Shown in pieces: positions 3,434 to 39,420 of a stretch of DNA of 64,000 bases. The notes beneath the pieces were generated by a model. It was not told the DNA's origin and did not search any database. It saw only the letters and a list, made by a program, of their open reading frames with translations. The stretch comes from Candidatus Cloacimonadales bacterium (GTDB lineage Bacteria; Cloacimonadota; Cloacimonadia; Cloacimonadales; JAFGVF01): positions 2,112,001 to 2,176,000 of the forward strand of contig OY762964.1 in the NCBI GenBank assembly GCA_963667035.1. Reading direction: 5' to 3'. How positions within the stretch are numbered: the first letter of the stretch is position 1; every line of letters starts with the position of its first letter. The translations under genes and the position numbers were made by a program.

Positions 3434-4336
3434 CTACCATTCCCCTACTAGTCGTAGTTCTCTTTCCAAAGTTACACCAAATTGCTTTAGAACTGTAGCT
3501 TGTGTAAACTTTATTAGGTTTACCACGTCTTCTGCTGTCGCATTATCCTGATTAACAATGAAACCACAATGTTTATCCGATACTCTTGCTCCACCAATCT
3601 GATGCCCTCTTAAACCACAATCATCAACAAGCTTGCCAGTGAAAAAACCTTCAGGACGTTTAAAAACACTTCCTGCACTTGGTAACACCATTGGCTGTTT
3701 AAGCCAACGTTGCTCTTTTAGCTGCTCCATCTGATTGGATATGTCTTCAAAATTACCTTTAGCCAACTTGAAAGTAGCACTTAAAACTATGTAGTTATCA
3801 GTCTGAATGAGACTATGTCTATAATCGAATTGCATCTCATGAAGTGATTTTTCTATCAAGATACCTTGTAAATTCATAAGCAAAGCTTTCTCAAAGCAGT
3901 CCTTTATTTCTCCACCATAGGCACCCGCATTCATTGTCACTGCACCTCCGACTGAACCCGGTATACCGTAAGCAAATTCAAGTCCGGTTAAGCTTAACTG
4001 CTTTGCTCTTATAGTTAAATCCTCTAGCAATACTCCACTTTCTGCAGTAAGTCTGTTGTCTTCATAACTTATACTATTAAGCTTCGTCATATCCAGAACA
4101 ATACCTCTAATTCCTTTATCACTAACAAGAATGTTAGAGCCGTTCCCAAGAATGAAGTAGGGTAGTTCATTTTGCTGAATAAAGCGAAATAGTTTAGTGA
4201 ACTCCTCAATAGATTGGGGAATTATAAAAAGGTCAGCCGGGCCACCTATTTTAAAGGATGTATGATTCTTTAACAATTCGTTTTCAATGATTGTGGAGTC
4301 AGGGAATTCGGAAATTAGTTTTAGGTAATTATTCAT
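3434..4336 (-). CDS. murB: UDP-N-acetylenolpyruvoylglucosamine reductase
   Basis: HTSFKIGGPA, LGNGSN, MNAGAYG, SAGSVFKRP and KHCGFIVN motifs. Likely ATG at 4336 overlaps the dinG stop. Confidence 0.93.
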   Translation of the reverse strand: MNNYLKLISEFPDSTIIENELLKNHTSFKIGGPADLFIIPQSIEEFTKLFRFIQQNELPYFILGNGSNILVSDKGIRGIVLDMTKLNSISYEDNRLTAESGVLLEDLTIRAKQLSLTGLEFAYGIPGSVGGAVTMNAGAYGGEIKDCFEKALLMNLQGILIEKSLHEMQFDYRHSLIQTDNYIVLSATFKLAKGNFEDISNQMEQLKEQRWLKQPMVLPSAGSVFKRPEGFFTGKLVDDCGLRGHQIGGARVSDKHCGFIVNQDNATAEDVVNLIKFTQATVLKQFGVTLERELRLVGEW

Positions 4337-10100: not shown

Positions 10101-11501
10101 ATCATAAGAATATTTCTTGATAATCTCTAAAGCGAAATTGGAAGAGTTTATCAAATAGAGGTTTTGAGCTAGTAGATAAACTGTTTCTTGATTAGCCAAG
10201 TCCTTTTCAGTACTTAACTGCAAGCAATTTCTGAAAGTATTAGCAGCTTCCTGGTATTTCTTTAAACTCTGATAAGTCTTACCAATAGCAACCATAAGTG
10301 TAAGTTTTTGTTCAGCTTTTTTGGTTTTGCTTAATGAATATTCCAGAATCTCAAGCAGATTCTCAAAATTACATATATTTCTTAATTCTCTTAAAGTTTC
10401 TTCAAAGACTTTAGTATCGAATCTATCCAATAATCTATGGTAATCTGAAAGCTGAGAAAGAGGTGTATTAGTACTTTTAAGGAAGTCAAGAACCATTGAT
10501 GTATAGTTTACCCTTAATTCCTTATCTAAGTTAAGAAACCATCTTTGGAAATGGTCGGGGCTTATAACACACAATCTTTCCTTATGAGCTCTAACGAAAC
10601 TCTTTATTTTTAGAACTTCCAGACTCTTGCTAAACTTAGTTTTACCAATTAAAGTTTGTAACTCTTCAGCTTTTATTCTTCCGTCAGATAAGAAGACAAG
10701 ACTCATAAGTAGTCGATCTGTATCTGTGAGCTGATTAAGGAACATCGCATAAAAATCAGTATTTTGAGTTTTCTCTTCAACATACTTTAATATATCGAAC
10801 TTGTTACCCTTTTTATACTCATCAGAGTTCATAATATCTATAAGTAACAACTCAAGAGTTAGCATATTACCCTGTGTAATATTCCAAAGAATTTCACTCT
10901 CAAACACAAAATCTGAGTTCTTAGATGGGAACACATCCTGTATTATTGAAGTAATGCCTTGTATAGATAGTTCATGTAAACGCTCTACATGAGAGATATG
11001 AAAGTCATGGTCTTTCGTGAAGGCAAAAACTTTGATACCAATATCCTCTGCATATTGGACAAGGAATTGAATGAACTTACGTGAATGTTCAGTTAGAAAA
11101 TCTCCTTCCATAACAATTAAAGTAATAGACCGGAAGTAATAATCCCTATTTATTACTTCGGTGAGATAGAAAAAGAAGTCATAGTCGCAGGTAAACTCAT
11201 AGTCAGAGCTTTTTCTTATAATCTCATCATATTCGGATTCTTTAAGATTAGTTACAGCCAGTACAAGATCTTTTAATTGATTCCAAGACAAGACTCTAGG
11301 ATGATAGCAGAAATAATCCATTTTTCTGCTTTTTAACTCATTCTCAAGATGCTCCAATAAAAGATACTTACCTGTTCCGGTATAACCAATAATCTCAATG
11401 ATTTCGCTTTTTGAATCACCCTCTGTGAAGGTTTTACTATAACTTTTAAAATCTTCAGCTAAATAACTGCTTAAAATGCTTTCCAAGCTTTTGCTCATCA
11501 T
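7197..11501 (-). CDS. Large sigma54-dependent enhancer-binding protein: degenerate NTPase, TPR repeats, GAF, AAA+ and Fis-HTH
   Basis: C-terminal GPSGTGKEL, ESELFGHVKGSFTGA, FFLDEI, FRLDLYYRL, PGNVRQL and NQTKAAKHLGLSR. Central YNNLG TPRs. N-terminal GYTGTGK and TQGN motifs. Confidence 0.88.
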   Translation of the reverse strand: MMSKSLESILSSYLAEDFKSYSKTFTEGDSKSEIIEIIGYTGTGKYLLLEHLENELKSRKMDYFCYHPRVLSWNQLKDLVLAVTNLKESEYDEIIRKSSDYEFTCDYDFFFYLTEVINRDYYFRSITLIVMEGDFLTEHSRKFIQFLVQYAEDIGIKVFAFTKDHDFHISHVERLHELSIQGITSIIQDVFPSKNSDFVFESEILWNITQGNMLTLELLLIDIMNSDEYKKGNKFDILKYVEEKTQNTDFYAMFLNQLTDTDRLLMSLVFLSDGRIKAEELQTLIGKTKFSKSLEVLKIKSFVRAHKERLCVISPDHFQRWFLNLDKELRVNYTSMVLDFLKSTNTPLSQLSDYHRLLDRFDTKVFEETLRELRNICNFENLLEILEYSLSKTKKAEQKLTLMVAIGKTYQSLKKYQEAANTFRNCLQLSTEKDLANQETVYLLAQNLYLINSSNFALEIIKKYSYDELENTFKANLLILKAEILTEKEDFGNAMPQLDKALQAAFKIEGEKIRNTVLGNCHKARGKIYYYSNDWDHAENCFNDAKSYFEQGNVISGLAAIYNNLAVIPMLSGNWEESEALFLKSLEIEKSRYNLNGMSICYNNLGGLMDDKGDKEKSIYYLYQGLNIQKLLSDPYNITNIYNNIGVTHMDNSEFDKAEEAYNKSLQTAINFSFHRNTIATLNNIGALYFQQGKWNEAIDTYERAIGKSEETDFVDGLIRSYINLGELYEKRGELNIAYDLYFKGLELLPQINDQYIKAQIYGNLGSTLTKMHKFKEAYRYLVESFDYFKALEAKNEIIEGCQKQAVYFIVTMNHESADYYLKMSYNLAKELNNEYEIGNTWFLRAKLDRKDLNKAKGHLEKAVEIFERHNKIYELAEANYELANIVAETGEAEEALNILKRNKNVIKNFGSIKILEQNDLLYEKINKEYKKKVDEAKYQESILDKFYAISEMLNEIHDFDLLLNTAIDEIINISEADGGILCLYNAENMPESWEYKLFRNFTFKDQAYDYFMRLILETYNQKKRLSLKQPQEGKKYNHVITFPMNMRNQSLGVILLFSNHESYYFNDQINNLLNALTNQIIVSVENIRATNLEKTHEIIREELNSSNIFANIIGKHEKMMAIFDIIRKIKDTPTTVFLEGPSGTGKELIARAIHYSSNRKNKAFVAQYCGALPETLLESELFGHVKGSFTGAAYDKKGLFEIADGGTFFLDEIADISLSTQAKLLRFLQEGEVKRVGSTKTEKVNVRVVCATNVSLKKKVEQGEFRLDLYYRLNVIKIEVPALSERATDIPLLAIHFLDKFNKRINKQIKGFTDEALKYLMSYSFPGNVRQLENEIERAVTLADDESYIKPSDFSEEIFRFAENTQAVNMLTQNVSLKEAVERLEKNMIMEALEVTEWNQTKAAKHLGLSRQGLIKKMRRYELFKDGIEDDGE

Positions 11502-23427: not shown

Positions 23428-23859
23428 TTATTTATCTTGAGTTTGAATCAATTGGTCATTTAAAGTAATAATGCCATTAGCTGCAATTGCAACAACCGGT
23501 AGAAATGTACATTCCTGATCAGAAACAGCATTCAGTGAGTCAGGCATGCATTGAAGATTCTTCTTTTCACTCATAACCCATTCATACATATCAAGAACAC
23601 TACTTATTCCAAAACTTCTACACCTTGATACAATTGGATGCTCATTGTGAAGGACCTTGTAACCCTTAGTTCGTAAGTATTCAATAAACTGTTTTCTTAA
23701 CTCCATTGGTTCATTCGAACTCTTGTAAAGCTGCTTATGAATCAATTCACTCTTATCAATGAAATAATCGCAAAACAAACGAGTTAGTCGTGGAACCAGT
23801 TCAGCCAAACCGCATTCTTTATCTACATCAACTATTGAATCAAGTCTATTGACTTTCAT
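23428..23859 (-). CDS. Hypothetical protein
   Basis: 143-aa ORF with a GAGG RBS, filling the gap; no recognised motif. Confidence 0.6.
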   Translation of the reverse strand: MKVNRLDSIVDVDKECGLAELVPRLTRLFCDYFIDKSELIHKQLYKSSNEPMELRKQFIEYLRTKGYKVLHNEHPIVSRCRSFGISSVLDMYEWVMSEKKNLQCMPDSLNAVSDQECTFLPVVAIAANGIITLNDQLIQTQDK

Positions 23860-24109
23860 AGAAAACCTCTCTTCTAATATTTCATATGCAAAAGTATAGG
23901 ATAATGTACAAATATATTAAAATAAAGGTTGACTAGCAAGAATATTTTATTTGACTCAATAATATCTACCCTTGATATTTATGTGGAGGTAATATTTATT
24001 CTGAAACTTAATTAGAGTTATGTCTGTGGATTTTTAAAGAATGCTAAGTCGATATTAACATATTGACAAATAAGTTATTATAAAATTTAGTTTTTATAAA
24101 GGAGAGGTT

Positions 24110-24712
24110 ATGAAGAGATTTTTTTTAATAATGCTAACAATACTTACAATGTTCCCACTTTTTTCTAAATCTATTTTAAATAGAGATGCAGTATTTGCTG
24201 ATGTAAGTGTAGGTTTCAGTAGATTAATTTATGGAGTAAATTATTTTGATAGTCATTACAGTGCTGTTGTACGAAGTACTGTTGCACAAAGTGCTTGGAC
24301 CGGTAGTATTAAAGTCGGGGAAAAAATTAGTGACGAGCTTGATGTATATTTATTCTATACTACAAATACATTCAGTGTTAAGAGAGCAAATAACAAAGAC
24401 AAGCGATTGAATAGCGATTTAACAGGGCTAGGAGCCAAATATTACATCACAACAAACAAGAATGATACATTCTTTATTAATCTTGGGATGGGATACTCTA
24501 CTTTCGATTCTTTATTTGATTCCAATACTGATAATTCCACAGGAGTTGGATATGAAATAGGTATTGGACATATTCTTAATGATAAGTTTAGTGTTTCACT
24601 TAACCACTTCTCTACTTCAAACAGTTTATACAATATTGAATATACAATAAACACCGTTACCTTTGTTGCATCATATCGTATATGTAAACAAAAAGCTACC
24701 TCACAGAGATAA
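24110..24712 (+). CDS. Outer-membrane beta-barrel protein (OmpA/OmpW-like, about 8 strands)
   Basis: Signal peptide, alternating aromatic/Gly strands (GLGAKYY, NLGMGYS, GYEIGIG) and strong RBS. Confidence 0.7.
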   Translation: MKRFFLIMLTILTMFPLFSKSILNRDAVFADVSVGFSRLIYGVNYFDSHYSAVVRSTVAQSAWTGSIKVGEKISDELDVYLFYTTNTFSVKRANNKDKRLNSDLTGLGAKYYITTNKNDTFFINLGMGYSTFDSLFDSNTDNSTGVGYEIGIGHILNDKFSVSLNHFSTSNSLYNIEYTINTVTFVASYRICKQKATSQR

Positions 24713-24730
24713 ATACTTAGTAAGGTAGCT
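24690..24730 (-). terminator. Terminator-like hairpin between convergent omp and gatD
   Basis: AGCTACCT / AGGTAGCT stem with an A-run on the left, which reads as a U-run on the minus strand. Confidence 0.55.
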
Positions 24731-24747
24731 AAAAAGGAGGCTATATA

Positions 24748-26130
24748 TTATAAGTGAATATTCTTGATGAACTGTTCAACTTCAGGAGTACCTCCTTGGA
24801 AAACTAAATATCCATTATAAGGTTCTCCCTCAGTAATTTCACCATTTACAGGTGTTAACATCAGTCTGCGAACTTCTTCCGGATCATCAGTTTGACCAAG
24901 TACCCAGCCAAGTTTAATATATGCAACTTCAGGAAGCATGTTCTCAGCAGGAATAATACCCTTTGCCATAAGATCGCGTCCGGTATCATAAACAAACATG
25001 TGCACATAACCCCATAGAGTTTGTACTGTCATAAAGATATGTACACCTTTCTTTACAGCTCTCTCAATTGCAGGATATAGAGGTTTATTAACATGACCTA
25101 GTCCTGTTCCTGCAATGATGATACCTTTATAGCCATTATCAACCATTGAGTCTATCATATCAGGTTGCATATTGGGATAGTAATAAATCATTCCGACTTT
25201 TTCTTCAAAGAATGGTTTAATAGTTACATTTCTATCACTTCTACGTTTATTGTACTTCTGTTTAATTGGTTTTATCTCTCTTCTATTTATTGTTGCAAGA
25301 GGGACATCTCCAATTGTACGAAAAGTAGATCTGAAAGATGAATGCATTTTGCGGACCCTTGTTCCTCTATGTAGAAGCCCATATTCATCAGAAGTCGGCC
25401 CGAACATACATATCATTACTTCCGCGATATCTGATTCTCCAGCGGCTTTTGCTGCATGAATAAGATTTAACGCGGCATCTGATGAAGGTCTATCAGAAGA
25501 ACGCTGAGAACCAACCAATACTATTGGTATCGGTGAATTCTGTACCATAAAAGTTATTGCAGCAGCTGTATGATGAAGAGTATCTGTTCCATGTCCAATC
25601 ATAATGCCGTCTACACCATTCTCAATCTCTTTACCAATTGCTATCGCCAATTCTTTGTATTGTTCAGGTCCCATATTCTCACTGAAAACAGCAAACAGTT
25701 TTTCAGTTTTTAAATTACAAACATCTGCTAACTCAGGAACGGCACCATACAATTCTCCCGGAGAAAAGGCAGGGATAACTGCTCCGGTTCTATAGTCCAA
25801 TCTGGAAGCAATTGTACCACCCGTTCCAAATAATTTTAGATTTGGCTTACCCTCAGTATATGGAAATTCCTTTTCCGGAATTTTGTAATTAGCTTTTTTA
25901 TAACCAATCTCTTTCATTTCAGTAATTGTGGATATATCAATACCTACATTGTAACCTGTAATAAGCTTTAAGACTATGTGTCTATCATCATCATTCTCTG
26001 CTCTTGGAAGTATGATACCTTTAAATGTACCGCGAGTAGTTAGAACTTCAGTATCACCCCAGACACGGACCTTAAACTTCTCAAGAAGCTCACGACTCTG
26101 GCCTTTATATCCTTGTGTATTTTCGTTCAT
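24748..26130 (-). CDS. gatD: Glu-tRNA(Gln) amidotransferase subunit D (asparaginase fold with GatD N-terminal domain)
   Basis: N-terminal GIILPR...VLKLITGYNVGI domain, then GTGGTIASRLDYRTG, HGTDT, VGSQRSSDRPSSD, HRGTRVRKMHS and MLPEVAYIKL. ATG 26130 overlaps the gatE stop (TAATG) and has an AGGAGG RBS. Confidence 0.93.
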   Translation of the reverse strand: MNENTQGYKGQSRELLEKFKVRVWGDTEVLTTRGTFKGIILPRAENDDDRHIVLKLITGYNVGIDISTITEMKEIGYKKANYKIPEKEFPYTEGKPNLKLFGTGGTIASRLDYRTGAVIPAFSPGELYGAVPELADVCNLKTEKLFAVFSENMGPEQYKELAIAIGKEIENGVDGIMIGHGTDTLHHTAAAITFMVQNSPIPIVLVGSQRSSDRPSSDAALNLIHAAKAAGESDIAEVMICMFGPTSDEYGLLHRGTRVRKMHSSFRSTFRTIGDVPLATINRREIKPIKQKYNKRRSDRNVTIKPFFEEKVGMIYYYPNMQPDMIDSMVDNGYKGIIIAGTGLGHVNKPLYPAIERAVKKGVHIFMTVQTLWGYVHMFVYDTGRDLMAKGIIPAENMLPEVAYIKLGWVLGQTDDPEEVRRLMLTPVNGEITEGEPYNGYLVFQGGTPEVEQFIKNIHL

Positions 26131-28109
26131 TATTCCTCCTCTCTTCCTGTGAGAATAGCTAGCACAGATTCTGAAACTGCTTCTAATGGTACACAACCTA
26201 TAACTTTTAGTCTAAGTTTCCCCATAATTACCTTAACTTTACTTTCCACATCATCATTTCTGATTGTATCTTTAAGCTTCTTAATCTCTTCTCTAATCAA
26301 CTCATCAACAGCATCAGGATGAACTATGTTTAAACCTGCACATACAGCACATGTCTCAATATCTGAATTGGGATTCAAATATACATGTTTCAATAACTCA
26401 TATGCATACTCAATATTAATACTATTTTTAGAGATAAACTCAAACATAGCTAAGATATTTTCGAGGTTGATTATACCATCATGCTTTCTTTCTAATTCCT
26501 TCAAACGATGTGAGAGGAGAACAATAATCTTAACCGGTTCAATATCATATCTTTCAGCAATAAGTTCTACCCAGCTAACAAGATTGTTTCTTAACAGATA
26601 ATCATAAGTATCTTCCGGTGCATTCCATTCTTGAAGAAGAGAGATTTGTTCTTGAAGGAATTTAGGCATCTTATCCTTAATACTATTAATAAGACTTTCT
26701 TCAATTGGAATTGGGGCAGAATCGGTATCAGGATACATTCTATCAGCACCAGGTAACACTCTTTCAAAGATTGTAGTTCCATCTTCGAATGACTTTCTGG
26801 TTTCTTTCGGTACACCTTCAAAAGCCATTAAGCATCTTTCTTTGATTGTTTCTAAGGCTGTCTGTACATCTTCTTCAGGAGCAAAGAATACTACTTGGGC
26901 ATCATTTTCTTTTGCTTTTAGTAGTTTTGCAATGTTAGCATAATCATTTACATTCATAATCTGATTTAAGTCCTCAGAATGAGTCATGTTGGGTTGATTC
27001 AAGCAAGCAACCACTCTAAGTCTTTGACTTATCTCATTTCCAAAACACTGTCCCGGTTGAGTAAACCAGCTAAGTAGTCCTTTGAAATTAGGAAGATTCA
27101 CGGCTACGATTTGCTTACCTTCTAAACAATAACAATCAGATAGCTTAGATTGAATAGTATCCGGAGATATAATCATTGATGATAAATCCCATTCATCGGC
27201 ATTCAATTCTCTTTTATGTAATTCTTCACTCAATAAAACTAGACTTCTTTGTCTAAAAGCTTCATTATGTGTAAGCTCCGGAATCCAACTGATATGTGCA
27301 ACACCTTTAATTTCTATTCTAGTACCACCGGTAGCACTTACATTAACATCTTCTCTACCGGCTCCTATACCTTTTCTTACTTTACCTGTACTTCTTGTAA
27401 GATAACGAATATACTCAGCAGTTTCCTTAACCTCATCAGGTTCTTTCATATCAGGATATGTTACTACTTCAATTAGTGGAACACCTAGCCTGTCAGTAGT
27501 ATAAATTCTTCTATGTCCAATATCTGAGACTTCTCTACAAGAATCTTCTTCTATACTTAACTGAATGATTCCAACTTTACGTCCTTTTGGGTAAATCTCA
27601 CCTTCAATACCGACAATTCCGGTTCTTTGAAAACCTGTAGGAATACTACCATCAAGATATTGCTTTCGGATTATATGGAACTCTCCCACGATGTTCTGTT
27701 TAAGTAGTAGAGATATCTCAAGGGCTATTGCCAGAGCTTCTCTATTAACAGGGAAAGGAGGAGTATCATCCAGCTCGTATGTACAAGTAGTAACATTTTT
27801 GATTCGATAAACTATTTCTTTTTTAGTTTTAAACTCCATTAACGCAGTTCCGTCGTATTCTCCCAATTCACTAAGGGTTGGGCGCATATGACGAACTATC
27901 TCTGTATCAAAATCTTCGAAATCCTGATATATACCAACAGGACAACGACAGAATAACTTCTTCTTTGAATCCAATTGTTGGTGTACTTCTAAACCACTCA
28001 TAAAACCAATATCTTCATATGTCTTACGAGTTGCTTGACTGCGTGGAACCCAACCACATAAGTCTCGGGTCCTCTGATAGTTTTCCTGAGGATTAAGGTT
28101 ATTTCTCAT
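26130..28109 (-). CDS. gatE: Glu-tRNA(Gln) amidotransferase subunit E
   Basis: GLEVHQQL, LFCRCP, RPTLSELGE, DGSIPTGFQRT, EEDSCR, DRLGVPLIE, RKGIGAGREDVNVS, RIEIKGV, an insertion domain, GVPKETR and LPGADRMYPDTD. These match GatE rather than GatB. Likely ATG at 28109. Confidence 0.93.
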   Translation of the reverse strand: MRNNLNPQENYQRTRDLCGWVPRSQATRKTYEDIGFMSGLEVHQQLDSKKKLFCRCPVGIYQDFEDFDTEIVRHMRPTLSELGEYDGTALMEFKTKKEIVYRIKNVTTCTYELDDTPPFPVNREALAIALEISLLLKQNIVGEFHIIRKQYLDGSIPTGFQRTGIVGIEGEIYPKGRKVGIIQLSIEEDSCREVSDIGHRRIYTTDRLGVPLIEVVTYPDMKEPDEVKETAEYIRYLTRSTGKVRKGIGAGREDVNVSATGGTRIEIKGVAHISWIPELTHNEAFRQRSLVLLSEELHKRELNADEWDLSSMIISPDTIQSKLSDCYCLEGKQIVAVNLPNFKGLLSWFTQPGQCFGNEISQRLRVVACLNQPNMTHSEDLNQIMNVNDYANIAKLLKAKENDAQVVFFAPEEDVQTALETIKERCLMAFEGVPKETRKSFEDGTTIFERVLPGADRMYPDTDSAPIPIEESLINSIKDKMPKFLQEQISLLQEWNAPEDTYDYLLRNNLVSWVELIAERYDIEPVKIIVLLSHRLKELERKHDGIINLENILAMFEFISKNSINIEYAYELLKHVYLNPNSDIETCAVCAGLNIVHPDAVDELIREEIKKLKDTIRNDDVESKVKVIMGKLRLKVIGCVPLEAVSESVLAILTGREEE

Positions 28110-28198
28110 TGCTTCCTCTATATATTTTTTATATTGTAATATCAAAAAGGAGAGATTCCCACTGAATCAATTTTACCTACCGAACAAAGCACTTTTAG

Positions 28199-30181
28199 TT
28201 AGTCAATCTTAAATTTTAAAATTCCTTTATCGGGTTCAATTTTCTCGATGCTTAATTCTACTTTATCACCTAGAGATAGTTCTTTCTCATTTATATTTAC
28301 TGTAGTTCTTTTCCCAAATGTATCTAATTCAAAGGTCACTCTACTTCTGTTCATATAAACTACAGTTGCTATAAAAGATGTTTCTAAACAAAATTTCTGT
28401 AAATATTTTAAGTACCAATAATTGGATGATTCCTGATACATTGCCCTATGTTTCTTAGTTATCTCTTCTACTTCAGCAATAATGCTAAACAATTCTTCAT
28501 TGGAATATGATAATTCATCATCCAAGAGAAATGCAGACACCTGTCTTTGAACAACTAAATCAGCATACCTTCTTATAGGACAACTCAACTGTGAATATGC
28601 ATCGATTCCTAGTCCACTATGCTCAGATGGAGCTGTAGAGATTCTTGAAGGACGAATAAATCTTATCAATCTATCAGTGACAACAGGGTCATAAGTTGAG
28701 TTATCACCTAGTTCAGGAATCGGATGTTCAGGTTTATCTTGAACACGATAAATACTGGGGATATTGTTATCTCTACAGAATTGGCCTGCAAGATTGTTAA
28801 TAAATATCATCAACTCACCTATTAATCTTCTACTACGAGACCAACGATTGATGTTATTTATTAATATATCATTCTCTTCCACTTTAAGCTGAACTTCAGG
28901 TCTAAGAATTTCTATTGCTCCATTCTCGAATCGTTTCTTTCTCATCATAATGCATAGTTCCTCAATCCTTAGTAAAGCTAGAGCTAACTCACCTTCTCCT
29001 GAATCAAGTAGTTCATCGGCATAATCATAAGTAAGCTTTTTGTTTACTATTACTTCCCCTCGGTATACATTCTTTGAAAGAATTTGCTTTGTAACCATAT
29101 CATATTCTATGATATATGATAGCACCGGTCTTGCTTCATTTTCGACCAAGCTTGTATGTAAAGAGGATAGTCTGGGAGGTAGCATTGGAACTGCTCCTGT
29201 TTCAAGATAGAGAGAAGAGCAACGATCCCTTGCCGTTTTATCAAGCACTGAGTTCTTTTTTACGAAATATTGTACATCAGCAATATGAATTCCAACTGTC
29301 AGTACATTCTCATTATAATCCAAAGAGATAGCATCATCAATCTCTGTAGTTCCTGCATCATCAATACTCATACAAAGCTTATGATTTATTACTAATCTGC
29401 TTTTATCATGCTTATAAGGCACAAGAAGATCAGCTTCGCTTATCTCCTGTTTTGAGAAAGTACTAGGTAATCCGGCTAAAGCAACAAATCTGTCAGTATC
29501 TGCAGAGATGAAACCTGAACCATATAGAATCTCAATAATAATCTCATTCTCATCTTTACTTCTGTTGAGTAGTTTTAATTCGTTGGAATAGAAGTAATCA
29601 CAACGTCTAAAATGATAATTATATATATCCTGTAGCATTGAATGCTCTACAGGATCAGGTTCAATAAAAGTGTTACCAGCTATCTTAAAATAGAGAGCTT
29701 TAAGCTTATTTACATACTCACTCTTTCTGTTTTCTATCTCTATAGAATTTGCTAACTCTTCTTTTTGTTCTTGAGTCCTAGGTGTAAAAAGAAGTCCCTT
29801 TAGACGAAAACAAAGTCTATTGTCCCTAATTGCTTTAATAAGAGCTGATTTTTGCTTTGAATCTGCTACATTGAAATATATATCAGAGAGGTCATCCAAA
29901 GTGTATGTGTCAGAGTTATCTTTAACCATCTCCCAAAGAAGCTCTACGTCTATCTCATTTCGAATAACAGATATAGAGCTTTCGTATTCTTCCATTGTAT
30001 GTTTGAACTCAGATTCGTTAATTTTCTTATGTACTACAACAATTCGATTGATTGGAAACTTCTGTTTTCTTCCTTTTAGGTTTAACACATGCACTTGATT
30101 TATGTTATGCTTAATGACATAACCATATTGAAGCCCATCTGCTTCAAAGTACTCTATCATTAACCCTTCAAGGTTTTCCAA
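28199..30181 (-). CDS. RNB-domain exoribonuclease (RNase II family)
   Basis: SIDDAGTTEIDDA, HIADV, HSGLG and PIRRYADL motifs, with an S1-like C-terminus. Confidence 0.88.
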   Translation of the reverse strand: MENLEGLMIEYFEADGLQYGYVIKHNINQVHVLNLKGRKQKFPINRIVVVHKKINESEFKHTMEEYESSISVIRNEIDVELLWEMVKDNSDTYTLDDLSDIYFNVADSKQKSALIKAIRDNRLCFRLKGLLFTPRTQEQKEELANSIEIENRKSEYVNKLKALYFKIAGNTFIEPDPVEHSMLQDIYNYHFRRCDYFYSNELKLLNRSKDENEIIIEILYGSGFISADTDRFVALAGLPSTFSKQEISEADLLVPYKHDKSRLVINHKLCMSIDDAGTTEIDDAISLDYNENVLTVGIHIADVQYFVKKNSVLDKTARDRCSSLYLETGAVPMLPPRLSSLHTSLVENEARPVLSYIIEYDMVTKQILSKNVYRGEVIVNKKLTYDYADELLDSGEGELALALLRIEELCIMMRKKRFENGAIEILRPEVQLKVEENDILINNINRWSRSRRLIGELMIFINNLAGQFCRDNNIPSIYRVQDKPEHPIPELGDNSTYDPVVTDRLIRFIRPSRISTAPSEHSGLGIDAYSQLSCPIRRYADLVVQRQVSAFLLDDELSYSNEELFSIIAEVEEITKKHRAMYQESSNYWYLKYLQKFCLETSFIATVVYMNRSRVTFELDTFGKRTTVNINEKELSLGDKVELSIEKIEPDKGILKFKID

Positions 30182-31453
30182 CTAAATCCCCCAATCAACA
30201 GATTTTCTTTTAATTGGCATTGTCATGCATCTGCAACCGCCACCGCCCCGGGCTAATTCCGCACCATCTATTGCAACAACGAACTTTTTATATTGGTTGT
30301 GATCGACTTTACCGGCAATAAGATCTTTAGCGTTTATTATCTCATATCCATGCTTGTTAAGTTCGTCAAGTGTATGTATGTTTCTGCTATATCCCAAAAC
30401 CTTTCCAGGTCCTACTGCAAAGAAGTTTGCTCCACTATGCCATTGTTCTCTTTCTTGGGTCCATTTACTTGCCGGACCACCGCAATGGATTGGTTCAAGA
30501 TCAAAGTTCAATTCTTTTAAAGCTTCAATTAGGTTCTTCTTCGATTCAATTTCTACCTTACCATTATCAATTCTGATACATACTGTTTCCAATCGATTAG
30601 GCTTAAGAATAACCGGTTCATAAACCATGCATTCATTTGTATTGAGGAAAGTAAAAACCATATCAAGATGAATAAACGATTCGGGTTGAAGCGGAAGCTC
30701 TTGAATCACAATATTGAATTTCTCTCTCTTATGTTTGAAATACTCTATTAAATAATCTATCCCTTGAGATGTCGTTCTTCCACCTATTCCGATTACAAGA
30801 GTATCTTCTCGTGCTATAAGTACATCTCCACCTTCAATTGTAATTTTGTTTGATGGTACCTTTTTGCTACTTAAGGGATTGAACGTTCTTGTTTGAATGT
30901 GGGGATGATAGTCAAAGACTGTTTCCATAATAATAGATTCTCTTTCTCTTACCTGATTAGCCATCTTTCCAATTAGAACTTCATCAAATACAGATATTGA
31001 AGCATCTCTCATAAAGAAGAAATTATGTAAAGGTTTCAAGCTATATTTCTCTTTGCTTAAGAATTCAGTTAAGTTATTCTTCTTCATTATAACACCTTCA
31101 AACAATTGACGGGTCAACTCTTCAGGTCCGAGCTTCATCAAATCATCAACTAGATTGAGTTGACATTCATAATTACATATTTTTTCAACAAGATTAAACT
31201 TAACTCTATCGTTTTTAAGTACTTGAGCAAGTAACTCTCTAATTTCGAAAGTATTGGTAAGAATATCCAATGCTCCTTTAAAATCGCTGTATTCATTATC
31301 AGCGACAGAAAGATTCAGTATGTCACTATATAATGCTCTTTCTGCATTCTGAGGAGTCATATTCTCAATCTCTCTTCCCGGACGATGAAGGATTACTCCT
31401 TCTAATTCACCTATTTCCGAGTTAACATTAACATTTATCTTTTCAGTCATCAC
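30182..31453 (-). CDS. arcA: Arginine deiminase
   Basis: SEIGEL..V.LHRPG, FFMRD, IEGGD, HLD, REQW and ELARGGGGCRCMTMP motifs. Confidence 0.93.
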   Translation of the reverse strand: MMTEKINVNVNSEIGELEGVILHRPGREIENMTPQNAERALYSDILNLSVADNEYSDFKGALDILTNTFEIRELLAQVLKNDRVKFNLVEKICNYECQLNLVDDLMKLGPEELTRQLFEGVIMKKNNLTEFLSKEKYSLKPLHNFFFMRDASISVFDEVLIGKMANQVRERESIIMETVFDYHPHIQTRTFNPLSSKKVPSNKITIEGGDVLIAREDTLVIGIGGRTTSQGIDYLIEYFKHKREKFNIVIQELPLQPESFIHLDMVFTFLNTNECMVYEPVILKPNRLETVCIRIDNGKVEIESKKNLIEALKELNFDLEPIHCGGPASKWTQEREQWHSGANFFAVGPGKVLGYSRNIHTLDELNKHGYEIINAKDLIAGKVDHNQYKKFVVAIDGAELARGGGGCRCMTMPIKRKSVDWGI

Positions 31454-33979: not shown

Positions 33980-36900
33980 TTATTTCTCATGCCTTCTATG
34001 CATAATGTAGTACAATCCAGGAATCATAAATAGAGTCAGAACTGTAGATGTCATCATACCGCCAATCTGTATAATTGCCATTGGGATACGATACTCAGCA
34101 CCGGCAGTACCTATACCAAGAGCCATAGGCAACATACCTAATTGTATGGCGAGAGTTGTCATGATAACTGTTTTCATCTTGGTTGGAGCAGCAATAAGAA
34201 TAGCTTCTTTCAAAGATATCTTCTCTTTTTCTTGTACCTGATTAGTATAATCAAGAATAAGAATCGCATCATTCACAACCAAACCAATAAGCATGATAAT
34301 CGACATCATTGATATGATATTCATTGATTGTCCGCTTAAATACATTAATATAAACACACCGATAGTAGCTAACGGTAATGAAACAAGAATAATAAACGGT
34401 CTTGTAAAACTTTCAAGTAATGAAGCAAGCAACATATACACTAGAACAACAGCAATAATGAAGGCAAAAACAAAATCAAACATTGCCTCTTCCATCATTT
34501 CGGCTTGTCCACCCCATGTAATGGTTGTACCTCGAGGTAACTCAATTTCATCTAGTCTCTTGTTTAACTCGGAAACAATCTCTCCAAGTGGAACACCCGG
34601 AGCAGGTGAAGCAGTAAAAGCTACTGAGTTCACTTTATCTCTGTGACGTATCTGAGTAGGTCCTTCTTCAAAAGTTATATCTGCTAACTGAGAAACGGTA
34701 TATGTTCCTGTAGGAGTTAGAACTGTTAAGTTCTCCACTTCTTCGGGAGTATCAATAGCTTCATCTTTTAGCGATACCCTTATGTCATATTCCAAACCAT
34801 TGTCCCTATATACAGTAGGAGTTACACCTTCTGCTGCATTTCTAAGAAACATACCTAGCTCATAAGCAGTTAAACCGGCTTCAGCTAGTTCCTTCCTTTT
34901 CGGATGTAACACCAGTTCAGGCATACCTGATCTTAAACTTGTATCAAAGTTTATCATCCCCGGAACTGTTTCAATCTTCTCTTTTACTATTGGTCCAAGA
35001 GTTTCCACTACTTCACGAGAAGAGTGTTTAACGTAGATTTCAATAGGTGATCCACCCTCTTCGTCACCGGTAGAAACAGAGATGATAGCATTGGGAACAT
35101 CAGAGAGCTCTTTAATAATCAGCTTAATGAAATTATATGTCTTGATTTCTCTTTCTTGAGCATCAACCATAATCGCAGTTAATTTACTTATATGAGTTCC
35201 GGTATCATTTCCCAATGTTGTTAGCACCATCTCAACTTCCGGATGAGCAGTAATACGTTGTTCAATATCTTCCATGACATCAGCAGATTGTGTAAGAGAA
35301 TATCCTTGAGGTAACTCAACAGAAACATTGAAACTTCCTTCATCCATATCAGGGAAGAATGAGAACCCTATTTTAGGTGCAATTCCAAAGAGGACTATAA
35401 AGAATATTACAAAAACGGTTACTGTTAAAAGCAACGGATTTCTCTTTCTTGACAGCAATTTTGCCAACACTCCATGATACCAGTTTTGTATATTCTCAAG
35501 TACTCTTTCCATGAAGCTACCAAATTTAGTTCTCTTTTCTTCTTTAGGAATCATCACAGAAGCTAACATCGGTGTTAAAGTAAAAGACATTAATAGTGAG
35601 AATACAGTAGCTACAGAGACAGTTAAAGCAAATTCTCTAAAAAACATTCCAACCATTGAAGACATGTTAGCAATTGGCAAGAACACAACAAGATTCGTTG
35701 CCGTTGAGGCCATAACCGCAGCAGTTACTTCAGCTGCTCCCACTCGAGCCGCTTCAGCTCTGTGTCCTAACAGACGTTTATGTCTGAATATGTTTTCCAA
35801 CACCACAATTGAGTTGGAAACCAGCACACCCACAGCGGTTGACAATCCCATCAATGTCATCATGTTTATCGAAAATCCAAAGTAGCTCAAAACCATAAAG
35901 GATGAGATTATAGAAGTAGGCATTGAAAGAGCAATAATCAATGTAGATCTTATATCATGTAAGAATACATAGAGAATAATTCCGGTAAGAATAATACCAA
36001 GTAAAAGATTTACAAATGTGTCCTTAATTGAACTTTTAATAAACTCGGAATCATCAAAGAAGAGCTGAATGTTCACACCATCCGGTAACTCATCTTGAAG
36101 TACCGGAATCATCTCTTTAACATTTTTTGCAATTGAAACCGTGTTTCCGTCCGAAGACTTGATTATACCAAGCTTGATAACATTAGGATCTTTCACTTTT
36201 GTCTTTGAATTAAAATAGATGGAACGCTTTGTTACTTCTTTTATTGTATCATCTACTTCAGCGAGCTCTTTGACCTTCTTATTACCCATAGCTGTCGGAA
36301 TAATCAATTCTTTGATTTCTTCCACTTTACTAAATTCGGCATCTGTTCTTAAGGCATATTCTCTGATCTCTCTTGTAAAATGTCCTCCAGACAAATCCAA
36401 GTTACTAGCTGCCAAGTATGAAGCAAACTGGTCAAGTGTCAGATGATTCTGGAAAAGAATACGGTCGGTTGTCTTAACTTGAATCTCTCTTTCTTGTCCA
36501 CCGGATAACTCAACGGAGGCAACACCTTCTACTTGGTAGAACCTATCTTTAACATAATTTTCTGCTAGGTCATACAACTCGGTTTCAGAAACATCTCCAC
36601 TGAGAATAAGCTGAACAATAGGCTCTGCACCAAACTCAAACTTTTCTACTGTTGGAGATTCTGCTTCATCAGGTAACTGACTTAGAATCGTGTTAATCTT
36701 GTCCTTTACTTCCTGACTAGCTAGATCCACATCTTTATCCATATTAAATTTAAGCACAATCATGGATACACTATCCATAGAATATGACTCTACGAAATCA
36801 AGCCCACTAACAGTAGATAGAACCTCTTCTATCTTTTCCGACACTTGAGTCTCAATTTCAGAAGGACCTGCTCCCGGATATATTGTTCTAACCAATATAT

Positions 36901-37030
36901 ATGGGATGTTTACATCCGGCATTAATGATACGGGTAGATTAAGCATTGCTATTATACCAAAGAGTAAAAAAGCAACGATAATCATCGTAGTCATTACCGG
37001 TTTCTTTGTTGATAAATTAGATAAAAACAT
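33980..37030 (-). CDS. RND efflux permease (AcrB/AcrD/AcrF family)
   Basis: 1016 aa, two large periplasmic loops, YPGAGPSEIE, SFTLTPMLAS and LPMALG motifs. Confidence 0.93.
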   Translation of the reverse strand: MFLSNLSTKKPVMTTMIIVAFLLFGIIAMLNLPVSLMPDVNIPYILVRTIYPGAGPSEIETQVSEKIEEVLSTVSGLDFVESYSMDSVSMIVLKFNMDKDVDLASQEVKDKINTILSQLPDEAESPTVEKFEFGAEPIVQLILSGDVSETELYDLAENYVKDRFYQVEGVASVELSGGQEREIQVKTTDRILFQNHLTLDQFASYLAASNLDLSGGHFTREIREYALRTDAEFSKVEEIKELIIPTAMGNKKVKELAEVDDTIKEVTKRSIYFNSKTKVKDPNVIKLGIIKSSDGNTVSIAKNVKEMIPVLQDELPDGVNIQLFFDDSEFIKSSIKDTFVNLLLGIILTGIILYVFLHDIRSTLIIALSMPTSIISSFMVLSYFGFSINMMTLMGLSTAVGVLVSNSIVVLENIFRHKRLLGHRAEAARVGAAEVTAAVMASTATNLVVFLPIANMSSMVGMFFREFALTVSVATVFSLLMSFTLTPMLASVMIPKEEKRTKFGSFMERVLENIQNWYHGVLAKLLSRKRNPLLLTVTVFVIFFIVLFGIAPKIGFSFFPDMDEGSFNVSVELPQGYSLTQSADVMEDIEQRITAHPEVEMVLTTLGNDTGTHISKLTAIMVDAQEREIKTYNFIKLIIKELSDVPNAIISVSTGDEEGGSPIEIYVKHSSREVVETLGPIVKEKIETVPGMINFDTSLRSGMPELVLHPKRKELAEAGLTAYELGMFLRNAAEGVTPTVYRDNGLEYDIRVSLKDEAIDTPEEVENLTVLTPTGTYTVSQLADITFEEGPTQIRHRDKVNSVAFTASPAPGVPLGEIVSELNKRLDEIELPRGTTITWGGQAEMMEEAMFDFVFAFIIAVVLVYMLLASLLESFTRPFIILVSLPLATIGVFILMYLSGQSMNIISMMSIIMLIGLVVNDAILILDYTNQVQEKEKISLKEAILIAAPTKMKTVIMTTLAIQLGMLPMALGIGTAGAEYRIPMAIIQIGGMMTSTVLTLFMIPGLYYIMHRRHEK

Positions 37031-37039
37031 CTATATTCC

Positions 37040-38071
37040 TCAATTTAAAACTTTAAGCTTGCTACCTTCTTTTACTCGATTGTAGCCTTTAGTTATAAGC
37101 ATATCTCCGGCTTTTAAACCTTTAAGAACTTCTACTTTCAAATCATTAACAATACCGAGTTCCAGAGTTCTCTTTTCTGCAGTACCATTGTTATCTACCC
37201 AAGTTGTCACATTGTCACCTGTTCCTAATATGTATACCCTATCCAGAGCAATAATATTCTTTTTACTGGATAAAGTTAAACTAACATCAGTTGTTACTCC
37301 ACCCTTAATTTTGTATCCCGCATTATCAAATTCTATTTCAGTTCTGAATGCTTTATGACTAGGATTCATGTTCAATGCAACAGCTGTAACACTACCATTG
37401 ATTGTGTTACCTCTCCATTCAGCTTTTGCTCGAAGTCCTTTTTTTACTAAACTGATATCATCTTCATTCACCCACACTTCCGCTTTTAACCTTGATAATT
37501 CGGAAATAGTGAATAGATTATCATCTGGGAATACTCTATCGGATTCGTTTACAAAAATCTCTGTAATAACACCTGATATAGGAGCTTTTACTTCAACCAT
37601 ATCAGTAGCCATATCAAGAGTAGCTCTCAGTACATCTACTTGGGTTTCAAGTTGATTTACTTCTTGCTCTGAAACACCACCCTCTTCTAATACACTCCTC
37701 ATTCTATTCACAGTCTGTAGAGCATCATCGTATTGAGATTTGGTTTGTCTGTATTGTGCCATCGCAGTATCATTAGGGAAACTGAGAACAACAGTATCTT
37801 TTTCTACATAATCACCAATTTTATAGTGGATTCTTTCAACTTGGTCAGACACTTTGCTTATCTGAGTGATTTCTCTAACACCTTCCATAGTTGTGAAGAA
37901 AGTCCTGGTTTTAACTAAATCGCTCTTTTCAATAGTCTGCACTTCTACAGGAATACCCTCTTCTCTATATATATCTTCCATTGATTTTGTCTCTACCACT
38001 TCTTTCTTACCACAACCTAGAAACATGAGTGTGCTGATAAGAACCAGTGTAATCAATATATTTCTTTTCAT
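37040..38071 (-). CDS. RND periplasmic adaptor (MFP) lipoprotein
   Basis: Lipobox FLGC, KAPISGVI and GLKAGD motifs. Likely ATG at 38071. Confidence 0.9.
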   Translation of the reverse strand: MKRNILITLVLISTLMFLGCGKKEVVETKSMEDIYREEGIPVEVQTIEKSDLVKTRTFFTTMEGVREITQISKVSDQVERIHYKIGDYVEKDTVVLSFPNDTAMAQYRQTKSQYDDALQTVNRMRSVLEEGGVSEQEVNQLETQVDVLRATLDMATDMVEVKAPISGVITEIFVNESDRVFPDDNLFTISELSRLKAEVWVNEDDISLVKKGLRAKAEWRGNTINGSVTAVALNMNPSHKAFRTEIEFDNAGYKIKGGVTTDVSLTLSSKKNIIALDRVYILGTGDNVTTWVDNNGTAEKRTLELGIVNDLKVEVLKGLKAGDMLITKGYNRVKEGSKLKVLN

Positions 38072-38081
38072 TATTTCTCCT

Positions 38082-39362
38082 TTATAAATCTCTTCCAATA
38101 GCCTTCATAAGATTCAACCAGTTAATTTTAGCTTTATATACAGCATTCAAATAACTGATTTTTGTACTCTTCCATGTTAGTTGAGAGTCACTAACTTCCA
38201 ATTGCGTCCCCAAACTATTCTGATAACGTGTTTCAGCTATATTAAGTGCTTTCTGTGCCAGATTTACGTTCTTTTCCTCAGCCTTCAGTTTTTGTAAACT
38301 CGCCTGATAGCTCTTATAAGCACTAGTTATCTCTAGCTCTATCTTGTTTCTAGTATCATGTTCCGTTATAAGAGCATTCTTATATGCGTATCTGGCTGAT
38401 TTCTTCTCATAGTGATTGGTAAGACCTTTAAAAATTGGTAGCTGGAACGAAATCCCCCAATTGTAGGTGTCTCCGAAATCATCTCCTTCTACTCCATATT
38501 TATCTGATAACGCATAATGAGTGTATCCTGCAGAAGCCTGTATATTAGGCAGAAAGTATAAACTTTCATTCTTATAATTAATTTCCTGCATCTCCCGACT
38601 CAATGCTACAACCTTAAGTTCACCTCTACTATTTGCTCCTTCTTCAATAGCCGATTCAAGAGACAATAGACCTGATTGGGAAAAACTAATCTCACCCTCA
38701 AGCTCTAACTCCCCTTCATTCCAGCCAATGAAATCTTTTAAGCTCTCTTTAGCTAAGACTACATTTTTCTCAGCTTCTGTCACATCAGGCTCCAGTCTTG
38801 ATACTGATAACTCAGCATTTAATAGGTCATACTCGCTGACCAGCTTCTGTTCATACATCACTTGAACCTGATTGTAATGCTTCACGGCAACTTCAAGAGC
38901 TTCCCTTTGAATTGCAAGTAACTCTTCTGCTAACAAAACACTATCAAAAGCTTCATATGTATTGAATATTACATTATCTTCAGTAACTCCTACATTAGTA
39001 TTCTGCAAATCTGTATATACCCTAGCAGCTCTTAAACCTAAGAATACAGAAGATGAAAACAGAATTTGACTTGCTTGTACTCCTGCAGCCAAACTTGTTT
39101 CTTTTTGTTCATCCATCCCATACTGCACGGTTTGATTATCCGATAGCATAGTTGTTTTTTGTTTATACTCTCCGACAGCATCAATCTGAGGATACAATAT
39201 CCCCTTTGTTCCTCTATAATCCGCATAAGCCATCTCTTTGTCATTCAGAGAGGTTTGCATGTCAGGATTATTATCCAATGCCATTTTTATTGCATCTTCA
39301 ATTGTTAATGCCTCGAGTAATACAGGTAGTAGTATTACCCATATTATCAGAAAACGTCTCAT
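38082..39362 (-). CDS. TolC family outer membrane efflux protein
   Basis: Signal peptide, duplicated OEP repeats (YPQI, LPNI, LPIFKG, RYQNSLGTQLEV) and operon position. Confidence 0.9.
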   Translation of the reverse strand: MRRFLIIWVILLPVLLEALTIEDAIKMALDNNPDMQTSLNDKEMAYADYRGTKGILYPQIDAVGEYKQKTTMLSDNQTVQYGMDEQKETSLAAGVQASQILFSSSVFLGLRAARVYTDLQNTNVGVTEDNVIFNTYEAFDSVLLAEELLAIQREALEVAVKHYNQVQVMYEQKLVSEYDLLNAELSVSRLEPDVTEAEKNVVLAKESLKDFIGWNEGELELEGEISFSQSGLLSLESAIEEGANSRGELKVVALSREMQEINYKNESLYFLPNIQASAGYTHYALSDKYGVEGDDFGDTYNWGISFQLPIFKGLTNHYEKKSARYAYKNALITEHDTRNKIELEITSAYKSYQASLQKLKAEEKNVNLAQKALNIAETRYQNSLGTQLEVSDSQLTWKSTKISYLNAVYKAKINWLNLMKAIGRDL

Positions 39363-39420
39363 TTTTCCTCCAAATCCATTTCTATATTTATATTCTCTCA
39401 AAGTAGTCATTATTGTCATA

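Follow-up and report, generated by a model that had tools for sequence, protein, structure and literature searches.

A gatE-gatD gene pair in a Cloacimonadales genome belongs to a large bacterial clade and may serve tRNA-dependent asparagine synthesis

The stretch of 64,000 nt analysed here (hereafter the window), from the genome of a Candidatus Cloacimonadales bacterium, carries a gatE-gatD pair (Table 1) that, judged by its sequence, is a true GatDE, neither GatB nor a type I asparaginase (AnsA), and is an ordinary member of a large bacterial clade. We favour an account in which this pair encodes a working amidotransferase of old archaeal origin, acting as an accessory enzyme that mainly forms Asn-tRNA(Asn), and we give this account as a whole a probability of about 0.5. 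That the genes encode a functional amidotransferase is very probable, whereas asparagine synthesis as its main role is a closer call, at a little under even odds. Between 2009 and 2022, reviews and primary papers described GatDE, in their passages on this enzyme, as confined to archaea, and our search of Creative Commons PMC papers and bioRxiv found no paper describing a bacterial GatDE. The archaea-only view is used in arguments on LUCA and on the failure of archaea to adopt GlnRS, and a bacterial clade of thousands of members bears on both.

The genes are full length and are coupled as the earlier note had described: a strong ribosome-binding site, GAGGAGG (26141-26135), stands ahead of a TAATG in which the gatE stop codon (26132-26130) and the gatD ATG (26130-26128) have one base in common. 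The gatE ATG at 28109 gives a protein of 659 aa, and an alternative TTG start at 28145 would yield 671 aa. A scan for promoters and terminators returned 25 promoter-like sites, with 30.6 expected, and no terminators. The distance from the end of the upstream RNase II/R-family gene to the gatE start is 89 nt, and two genomes of the genus share this junction. Comparison with a genome of that genus gave dN/dS values of 0.079 for gatE and 0.026 for gatD; such strong purifying selection indicates that both genes are in use.

Table 1. Positions of the gatE-gatD locus, its parts and its bacterial neighbours in the window.
Feature	Position	Strand	Description
gatD	24748..26130	minus	460 aa: GatD N-terminal domain and asparaginase-type amidase
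gatE	26130..28109	minus	659 aa: cradle domain, AspRS-like insertion, helical domain, divergent YqeY-like tail
Translational coupling site	26128..26141	minus	GAGGAGG ribosome-binding site, then TAATG
GatE remodelled tail, residues 606-659	26133..26294	minus	hMGxLRxxxhGxhxL, not archaeal LMGxxMxxxRG+xDG
GatE loop, residues 243-252	27354..27383	minus	KVRKGIGAGR; short, positively charged
RNase II/R-family gene	28199..30181	minus	upstream of gatE; context only
murB	3437-4390		bacterial neighbour
sigma-54 activator	7200-11501		bacterial neighbour
RND pump with TolC	33983-39419		bacterial neighbour
Class A RNase P RNA	53090-53483		bacterial neighbour

Both proteins exceed the cut-offs of their NCBIfam models. 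GatE scored 507.3 bits with NF003107 (cut-off 456) and 435.5 bits with TIGR00134 (cut-off 319.55), and the best of the GatB models, TIGR00133, reached 126.1 bits, below its cut-off of 314.8, as for a GatB paralogue. GatD scored 508.7 bits with NF003217 (cut-off 310) and 507.6 bits with TIGR02153 (cut-off 324), and the GatD models beat the asparaginase subfamily model (508 vs 383 bits). A free-standing AnsA is ruled out by the GatD N-terminal domain (PF18195, residues 34-71, 46.5 bits) and by the coupling of gatD to gatE; GatCAB is ruled out by the absence of GatB and GatA from the genome. The domain content claimed in the earlier note stood for GatD and for the GatE insertion. In GatD, Pfam detected both asparaginase domains, residues 7-442 align with 1zq1_A and 2d6f_A, and the catalytic residues are kept in GGTIAS (T106), HGTDT (T182 and D183) and RKMH (K261). 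In GatE, the Pfam GatB_N model, of 277 positions, is matched over residues 38-474, which implies a large insertion; this is the AspRS-like domain absent from GatB, and the alignment with 2d6f_C runs unbroken over residues 3-577 of that chain. GatE residues 29-649 align with residues 8-623 of the 633 in 1zq1_C, and the match to 2d6f_C is also near full length. GatE typically ends in a YqeY-like tail by which the D-loop of the tRNA is read. Here the tail is alignable up to residue 623 of 1zq1_C, although its motif is remodelled and Pfam GatB_Yqey (PF02637) was not detected in the GatE of the window.

The closest known systems are the archaeal GatDE of P. abyssi (1ZQ1) and M. thermautotrophicus (2D6F, with tRNA-Gln), which have the same two subunits in the same domain order; against these solved chains the GatD of the window scored 404 bits and its GatE 316 bits, with the catalytic motifs kept. 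The window's GatE is longer than the archaeal chains by about 28 aa at its N terminus, and differs from them in the tail and in the loop near the first tRNA base pair. The setting also differs: archaeal tRNA-Gln has A1-U72 and archaea lack GlnRS, whereas the present host is bacterial, its tRNA-Gln has U1-A72 and GlnRS is present. A host with A1-U72 tRNA-Gln and without GlnRS is a feature of the distribution of GatDE, not of the enzyme mechanism.

Bacterial copies of GatDE number in the thousands in the databases. The clade they form is very large, with members in at least 13 phyla, and cultured Bacteroidales belong to it; among the cultured carriers are Marinifilum flexuosum DSM 21950, Labilibaculum sp. 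K2S and Perlabentimonas gracilis. Within the order of the host, 17 of 41 genomes carry GatE, and the AsnRS tree calls for at least 10 gains or losses. In GatE trees with archaeal sequences, all named bacterial GatE rows formed one clade, sister to archaeal GatE labelled Thermoplasmatota (P0294, P0336, P0351, P0353, P0359, P0375, P0383, P0386, P0389 and P0395), labels that the submitters gave to metagenome bins. The joint clade had an SH-aLRT support of 100. Its position is less firm: the LG+G4 tree of 71 rows placed the GatB root within the bacterial side, the base of a 99-row GatE tree was unresolved, and the joint clade was nested within archaea under the C20 mixture model only. In the most likely history, a Thermoplasmatota-like archaeon passed GatDE to bacteria once, long ago, after which it spread and was frequently lost. 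The earlier note had proposed an old, settled transfer, and the synteny of gatDE kept within the genus, the low dN/dS and the single bacterial clade beside the Thermoplasmatota-labelled sequences agree with it.

Altered tRNA recognition, also proposed in the earlier note, is indicated by the U1-A72 pair of the host tRNA-Gln, and the clade-specific changes in the GatE loop and tail are consistent with it. The GatE loop has been described as replacing a 3-10 turn of GatB and as adjoining the first tRNA base pair (PMC2811023). On the non-bacterial side, the loop motif was found in 86 rows, and 84 of these have R ahead of the loop glycine; of the 104 such rows on the bacterial side, 70 have T at this position and 26 have R, and the GatE of the window has K. 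The motif that follows reads GT in 70 of those 86 rows and GA in 86 of those 104. In the tail, the strict GxxAxGx motif was found in 1 of 106 bacterial-side rows vs 26 of 87 other rows. We rejected the loss of this motif as evidence of a new substrate, since the Thermoplasmatota-labelled archaeal rows lack it too and the loss is therefore not specific to bacteria. Unlike the bacterial clade, these archaeal rows have R before the loop glycine, the tail RG+xDG and a YqeY-type tail that Pfam recognises: when the 120 best relatives are taken for each, PF02637 is listed for 119 of those of the Thermoplasmatota-like P0152 and for 9 of those of the window's GatE.

The genome is complete (3.10 Mb, single contig, 98.2% completeness). 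It encodes GlnRS (792 bits), AsnRS (449 bits), one GluRS, one bacterial-type AspRS of 595 aa and GlnA, while neither GatA nor GatB was found. The idea that GatDE is the cell's pathway to Gln-tRNA(Gln) is consequently not supported, because GlnRS makes the enzyme unnecessary for that product; as the sole amidotransferase beside GlnRS and AsnRS, GatDE has an accessory part and does not provide the main route of charging. The earlier note had held that GlnRS together with GatCAB would speak against an essential role. GlnRS is present but GatCAB is not, and by that reasoning the full GlnRS and AsnRS argue against GatDE being essential. The 49 tRNAs were also compared at the first base pair, and U1-A72 occurs only in tRNA-Gln (two genes) and tRNA-Asn. 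This pair is given in PMC2811023 as a known identity mark for bacterial amidotransferases. Members of the clade that stand beside GlnRS and AsnRS must read U1-A72 tRNAs, which indicates that GatDE is able to function away from the tRNA-Gln of archaea.

A surplus amidotransferase of this kind has a parallel. GatCAB is found beside GlnRS and AsnRS in Bdellovibrio, Legionella, Thermus and Deinococcus, where it likely serves tRNA-dependent asparagine synthesis (PMC4206432). As in those hosts, the amidotransferase here exceeds the needs of charging and tRNA-Asn has U1-A72; AsnA is absent from the genome, and no AsnB was found in it above cut-off (best match 64 bits). The ammonia-releasing subunits are unrelated, GatD having an asparaginase fold and the GatA of GatCAB being an amidase, and GatDE works without GatC. 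In the account we favour, the bacterial clade would have adapted to bacterial U1-A72 tRNAs after the transfer. GatD would release ammonia from Gln or Asn, and GatE would phosphorylate and then amidate the acidic aminoacyl-tRNA. The single AspRS would make Asp-tRNA(Asn), on the assumption that it accepts tRNA(Asn), and GatDE would convert this presumed substrate to Asn-tRNA(Asn). Asparagine would thus arise without AsnA or AsnB, as with GatCAB in Bdellovibrio, whose AspRS was shown to be non-discriminating (PMC4206432); repair of Glu-tRNA(Gln) may be an extra task. A bolder version, in which bacterial GatDE was re-tuned to U1-A72, displaced GatCAB in many phyla and is now an Asp-tRNA(Asn) or dual Asp/Glu amidotransferase and the sole source of asparagine here, seems to us possible but somewhat doubtful. 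In that version, GatDE would not be an archaeal signature.

The Asp-tRNA(Asn) substrate, suggested in the earlier note, thus fits the gene inventory of the host, but the comparative counts of AsnB do not follow it. Among the 41 genomes of the order, the 17 with GatE divide into 8 with and 9 without AsnB, and those lacking GatE into 19 with and 5 without, a raw table that leans toward the expected anticorrelation. However, no link was seen in five independent pairs on the AsnRS tree (0.9 the same way, 1.0 opposite, 3.0 with no difference, p = 1), and of 31 further bacterial genomes with GatDE, 24 had AsnB above cut-off; we therefore rejected the anticorrelation as a general rule. The report that archaeal GatDE converts only Glu-tRNA(Gln) (PMC2811023) also counts against this role. 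In addition, a divergent AsnB-like protein of 543 aa (GATase_7 27 bits, SGGLDS PP-loop, no Cys2) is encoded just beyond the window and could still make asparagine, a further point against this role.

Whether bacterial GatDE serves Asn, Gln or both is the question that its existence raises, and it is testable now, since cultured carriers exist. A role in amidating Glu-tRNA(Gln), either as a second route to Gln-tRNA(Gln) under glutamine scarcity or in clearing the product of a relaxed GluRS, is in our view rather unlikely, although GatE and GatD both exceed the equivalog cut-offs for Glu-tRNA(Gln) amidotransferase and the host tRNA-Gln bears the U1-A72 pair. GlnRS is present in the host, in 39 of the 41 genomes of the order and in 27 of the 31 other carriers, and the literature knows no bacterium with both routes to glutamine. 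The two genomes of the order without GlnRS are both GatE-positive, and two of the four such carriers elsewhere also lack GatB; yet the GlnRS-less genomes are drafts, in two of which GluRS is also unregistered, and G019, G023, G055 and G062 were for this reason set aside as evidence. A relaxed GluRS might be read from the Tyr that the host enzyme aligns with Arg358 of T. thermophilus GluRS, a residue that serves as a mark of discrimination. This test cannot be relied on: a non-Arg residue is also aligned there in the best PDB match, 6brl_A, which we take to be the Elizabethkingia GluRS structure.

It is improbable that GatDE acts outside translation, on another substrate or through a retained asparaginase or glutaminase activity, with the change in the tail marking the loss of standard tRNA reading. 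The Pfam YqeY-type model does fail to recognise the tail, the distribution in the order is patchy and the presence of GatDE is independent of missing synthetases. Nevertheless, the GatE of the window keeps the cradle invariants (66 invariant columns in an alignment of 16 diverse GatE sequences including it) and the positively charged loop, and archaeal GatD activity depends on GatE and tRNA. Moreover, 73 of 80 bacterial loci have gatD after gatE, and no other neighbour is conserved across the 80; frequent clusters of small ORFs were discarded as neighbours, since their members run antisense within one of the two genes (176 of 189, 76 of 85 and 30 of 30) or, for the remainder, overlap one of them on the opposite strand. 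Still far less probable, and already largely refuted, is that the pair is a neutral remnant nearing loss or a recent island, or that it stems from contamination or a chimeric assembly. Frequent loss of GatE among relatives and the apparent redundancy with GlnRS and AsnRS would suit a remnant, but the reading frames and motifs are intact, dN/dS is 0.03-0.08 and the same junction occurs in the two other genomes of the genus. In each of three runs, a single contig (24-43 kb) spanned positions 23500-30500 without differences, all three runs coming from one sample that is possibly the source of the assembly. Transposase or integrase matches were found for none of the 43 window ORFs of at least 110 aa that were scanned, 36 of them at E <= 1e-25; 13 of the 43 had no family match. 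The bacterial surroundings named in the earlier note (murB, the sigma-54 activator, TolC and the class A RNase P RNA) were all matched, together with htpG, relA/spoT, tig, clpP and clpX, and the GC content of the locus (0.346-0.358) is typical of the window (0.316-0.409).

The gatE and gatD open reading frames lie head to tail on the same strand and meet at a TAATG junction, where the stop codon of gatE and the start codon of gatD have one base in common, with GAGGAGG 7 bases upstream. The NCBIfam equivalog models scored 507.3 for GatE (cut-off 456) and 508.7 for GatD (cut-off 310), bearing out the full-length, coupled gene pair of the earlier note. A GatB identity was checked with the GatB models, which scored at most 126 against the window GatE, far under the cut-off of 314.8 (NCBIfam); the GatE assignment held. 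The Pfam match to the GatB/GatE catalytic domain was stretched over GatE residues 38–474, and the insertion domain is therefore present. Pfam also detected the N-terminal domain of GatD along with its two asparaginase domains. GatD aligned over nearly its full length with the solved structures from P. abyssi (404 bits) and M. thermautotrophicus (401 bits), retaining the catalytic motifs GGTIAS (T106), HGTDT (T182, D183) and RKMH (K261), and the GatE alignment to 1zq1_C covered residues 8–623 of its 633; the GatD motifs, the GatD N-terminal domain and the GatE insertion noticed previously are confirmed. The window GatE also matched all 66 columns that are invariant in 16 diverse GatE sequences. 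The operon is real, and it belongs as an ordinary member to a clade of bacterial GatDE that is very large and has been overlooked by the literature.

Features of the window, of the rest of its genome (single contig G000:C1; L017 is a stretch cut from it) and of a relative's draft genome (G015)
Feature	Location	Strand	Description
gatE	window 26130–28109	minus	ORF, 659 aa counted from the ATG at 28109
gatD	window 24748–26130	minus	ORF, 460 aa
Phosphoglucosamine mutase gene	window 11–1348	plus	
Sigma-54-dependent activator gene	window 7200–11501	minus	unusually long; only the last ~500 residues match known regulators
Arginine deiminase-like gene	window 30182–31453	minus	272.6 bits, under the family cut-off of 414
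Long ORF	window 49364–52288	plus	975 aa; no NCBIfam match at E <= 1e-25
Long ORF	window 55576–58359	minus	928 aa; no NCBIfam match at E <= 1e-25
AsnB-like protein P0408	G000:C1 about 2098055–2099683 (L017:661–2289)	minus	543 aa; ~13 kb upstream of the window
tRNA-Sec	G000:C1:1779700–1779794		A1-U72; outside the window
tRNA-Trp	G000:C1:2359597–2359672		A1-U72; outside the window
Second AsnRS match	G015:C137:1655–2935		7 in-frame TGA codons

The genome is a single contig of 3.10 Mb (98.2% complete), and the GC content of the locus is typical for the window. The bacterial neighbourhood that had been described was recovered: the window carries murB, a 1434-aa sigma-54 activator, relA/spoT, htpG, an RND pump with TolC, the pyruvate dehydrogenase complex, tig, clpP, clpX and a bacterial class A RNase P RNA, and no transposase or integrase match was found among the 43 ORFs scanned. 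Two other genomes of the genus share the arrangement RNase II-like gene–gatE–gatD. Three public runs, all from a single sample that is possibly the genome's source, each yielded one contig (24–43 kb) that covers positions 23500–30500 with zero differences. Chimeric assembly at the locus is therefore very unlikely. In the comparison with the same-genus genome G001, dN/dS was 0.079 for gatE (amino-acid identity 81%) and 0.026 for gatD (94%), ratios that are rough because dS, at about 1.8, nears saturation. Judged from these sequences, both genes are in use.

The word-indexed search returned at least 8000 protein matches to the window GatE; the best 120 of these had 53–81% identity, and every named one was bacterial (Bacteroidales, Lentimicrobium, Cloacimonetes and Zixibacteria), the closest named GatE among the matches listed being that of Candidatus Zophobacter franzmannii (72%). 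The host is taken to belong to Cloacimonadota. At least 599 stretches matched in species-representative genomes, the best 80 all coming from bacterial records, including the cultured Perlabentimonas gracilis, Marinifilum flexuosum DSM 21950 and Labilibaculum sp. K2S and bins labelled Ignavibacteria, Aminicenantes, Omnitrophota, Lentisphaeria, WOR-3, Planctomycetota, Gemmatimonadota, Acidobacteriota, Krumholzibacteria and Fermentibacteria. A gatD ORF was present at 73 of these 80 loci, its distance from the end of gatE lying between −150 and +130 nt at 61 of them, and no other neighbour family recurred in more than 8 of the 80. Within the order, GatE was above the cut-off in 17 of 41 genomes, from many families. 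A full-text literature search among Creative Commons PMC papers and bioRxiv found no paper on bacterial GatDE, and passages of papers from 2009, 2021 and 2022 describe GatDE as exclusive to archaea.

Four GatE trees were inferred with six bacterial GatB sequences as the outgroup (FastTree, 199 rows; IQ-TREE LG+G4, 71 and 99 rows; IQ-TREE LG+C20 PMSF, 63 rows), all with a single support measure and a short search. The named bacterial sequences formed one clade (SH-aLRT 96 with LG+G4, 99 rows, and 91 with LG+C20 PMSF), with one exception: P0308, a partial protein named 'Bacteroidetes bacterium', was placed within a Thermoplasmatota-labelled subclade (LG+G4, 99 rows), which reflects either wrong binning or another, independent transfer. 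Sister to the bacterial clade were ten proteins labelled Thermoplasmatota, Thermoplasmata or Thermoplasmatales in NCBI records, and the joint clade had a support of 100 in both the 99-row LG+G4 and the LG+C20 PMSF trees. With LG+C20 PMSF, this joint clade was nested in the remaining GatE rows, beside a Heimdallarchaeota sequence (support 97); most of these rows lack names, and the three names obtained were all archaeal (Heimdallarchaeota, Thorarchaeota and Thermoprotei). Transfer from an archaeon to a bacterium is likely, not proven, because the root was unstable under LG+G4 (71 and 99 rows). The old, domesticated transfer proposed in the earlier note agrees with the single bacterial clade, the synteny and the low dN/dS, its archaeal source being only likely. 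Phyla were intermixed in the bacterial clade and Cloacimonadota appeared at two places, indicating later transfers between bacteria. The window GatE fell in a crown group on a long branch (~0.5, support 100), together with Bacteroidota, Cloacimonas, Aminicenantes, Omnitrophota and WOR-3.

GatE is described in part of PMC2811023 as having a short, conserved, positively charged loop at the place of the GatB 3-10 turn that senses U1-A72, and a D-loop pocket in its tail. On the non-bacterial side of our GatE alignment the sequence of this loop is V[KR]RG-[LI]GT[IV]RQD, with R before the loop glycine in 84 and GT after it in 70 of the 86 rows in which the motif was found. For most rows on the bacterial side it is VRTG-[IM]GA[GA]R[EQ]D (T before the glycine in 70 and R in 26 of 104 such rows, followed by GA in 86), and the window GatE has KVRKG-IGAGRED. 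The crown-group tail carries NW-IMGQLRxxAIGNIxL in place of LMGxxMxxxRG+xDG, a pattern that the window version fits. Among the 120 closest relatives of the window GatE, the Pfam YqeY-type tail model is listed for 9; among the 120 closest to the Thermoplasmatota-like protein P0152, it is listed for 119. These changes fit an adaptation to bacterial tRNAs whose identity they do not specify; the altered tRNA recognition anticipated in the earlier note is consistent with the changed first-pair loop, the remodelled tail and a tRNA-Gln with U1-A72. The GxxAxGx motif, linked second hand to the rejection of Asp-tRNA(Asn), is absent in bacterial GatE; it is degenerate also in the Thermoplasmatota rows, so we dropped it as a substrate indicator and drew nothing from it.

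Among the 49 tRNA genes, U1-A72 is the first pair only in the two for tRNA-Gln and the one for tRNA-Asn, which answers the check on the 1–72 pair. Only tRNA-Sec and tRNA-Trp start with A1-U72, and we know of no link between either and GatDE. According to parts of PMC2811023 and PMC9499178, U1-A72 is the mark read by bacterial GatCAB, and the archaeal GatDE enzyme recognises A1-U72 together with the D-loop. The genome encodes GlnRS (792 bits; 865 on the cut-out protein), AsnRS (449 and 522 bits, respectively), one GluRS, one bacterial-type AspRS (595 aa), LysRS and a type I glutamine synthetase; neither GatB nor GatA was found in this 98.2%-complete genome. The inventory thus speaks against an essential role as regards GlnRS and AsnRS, the GatCAB subunits GatB and GatA being absent. 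With a GlnRS present, GatDE is not required for Gln-tRNA(Gln) in this genome, and the idea that it is the cell's route to this product is not supported. No AsnA and no AsnB above the cut-off were found in the genome, the weak AsnB matches being PurF, GlmS and the like. As a caveat, P0408, which resembles an AsnB-like paralogue, could make asparagine; it has a weak class-II amidotransferase domain (GATase_7, 27 bits) and an SGGLDS PP-loop, lacks the N-terminal Cys and has no NCBIfam match.

GlnRS was found in 39 and AsnRS in all 41 genomes of the order. Among 31 other bacterial carriers, chosen from 80 named ones to span phyla, GlnRS was found in 27, AsnRS in 31 (29 above the cut-off) and GatB in 9. 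Bacterial GatDE therefore typically occurs beside GlnRS and AsnRS, mostly without GatCAB. The closest situation, as described in part of PMC4206432, is that of bacteria that possess GlnRS, AsnRS and also GatCAB, where the amidotransferase makes asparagine on tRNA-Asn via a non-discriminating AspRS; Bdellovibrio resembles the present genome in having one AspRS and neither asparagine synthetase. By analogy, we favour asparagine synthesis on tRNA-Asn as the role of GatDE here, for which the comparative support is weak; GatDE would make asparagine on tRNA-Asn as GatCAB does in those bacteria. Action on Glu-tRNA(Gln) is a serious rival. The survey in that source found an asparagine synthetase in 49 of 67 genera with GlnRS, AsnRS and GatCAB, a proportion similar to that of AsnB in our GatDE carriers (24/31). 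Within the order, GatE was present in 9 of 14 AsnB-negative and 8 of 27 AsnB-positive genomes, a raw table that leans the way expected for asparagine synthesis, with AsnB matches that include paralogues; five independent contrasts on the AsnRS tree of the 41 genomes showed no GatE–AsnB association. On the same tree GatE must have been gained or lost at least 10 times, so over short time scales its function can be dispensed with. GatDE is an accessory enzyme in this cell, and its substrate is testable.

The contig of the second AsnRS match in the relative's draft genome is probably a contaminant from an organism reading TGA as a residue. Within the window, the arginine deiminase-like gene lies upstream of, and is codirectional with, the RNase II-like gene and the gatE–gatD pair. 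Another gene of archaeal type in the window, the second one, is that for phosphoglucosamine mutase, scoring 506.8 bits with the archaeal-type GlmM model TIGR03990 (cut-off 439) and 219.6 bits with the bacterial glmM model, under its cut-off of 447.55.
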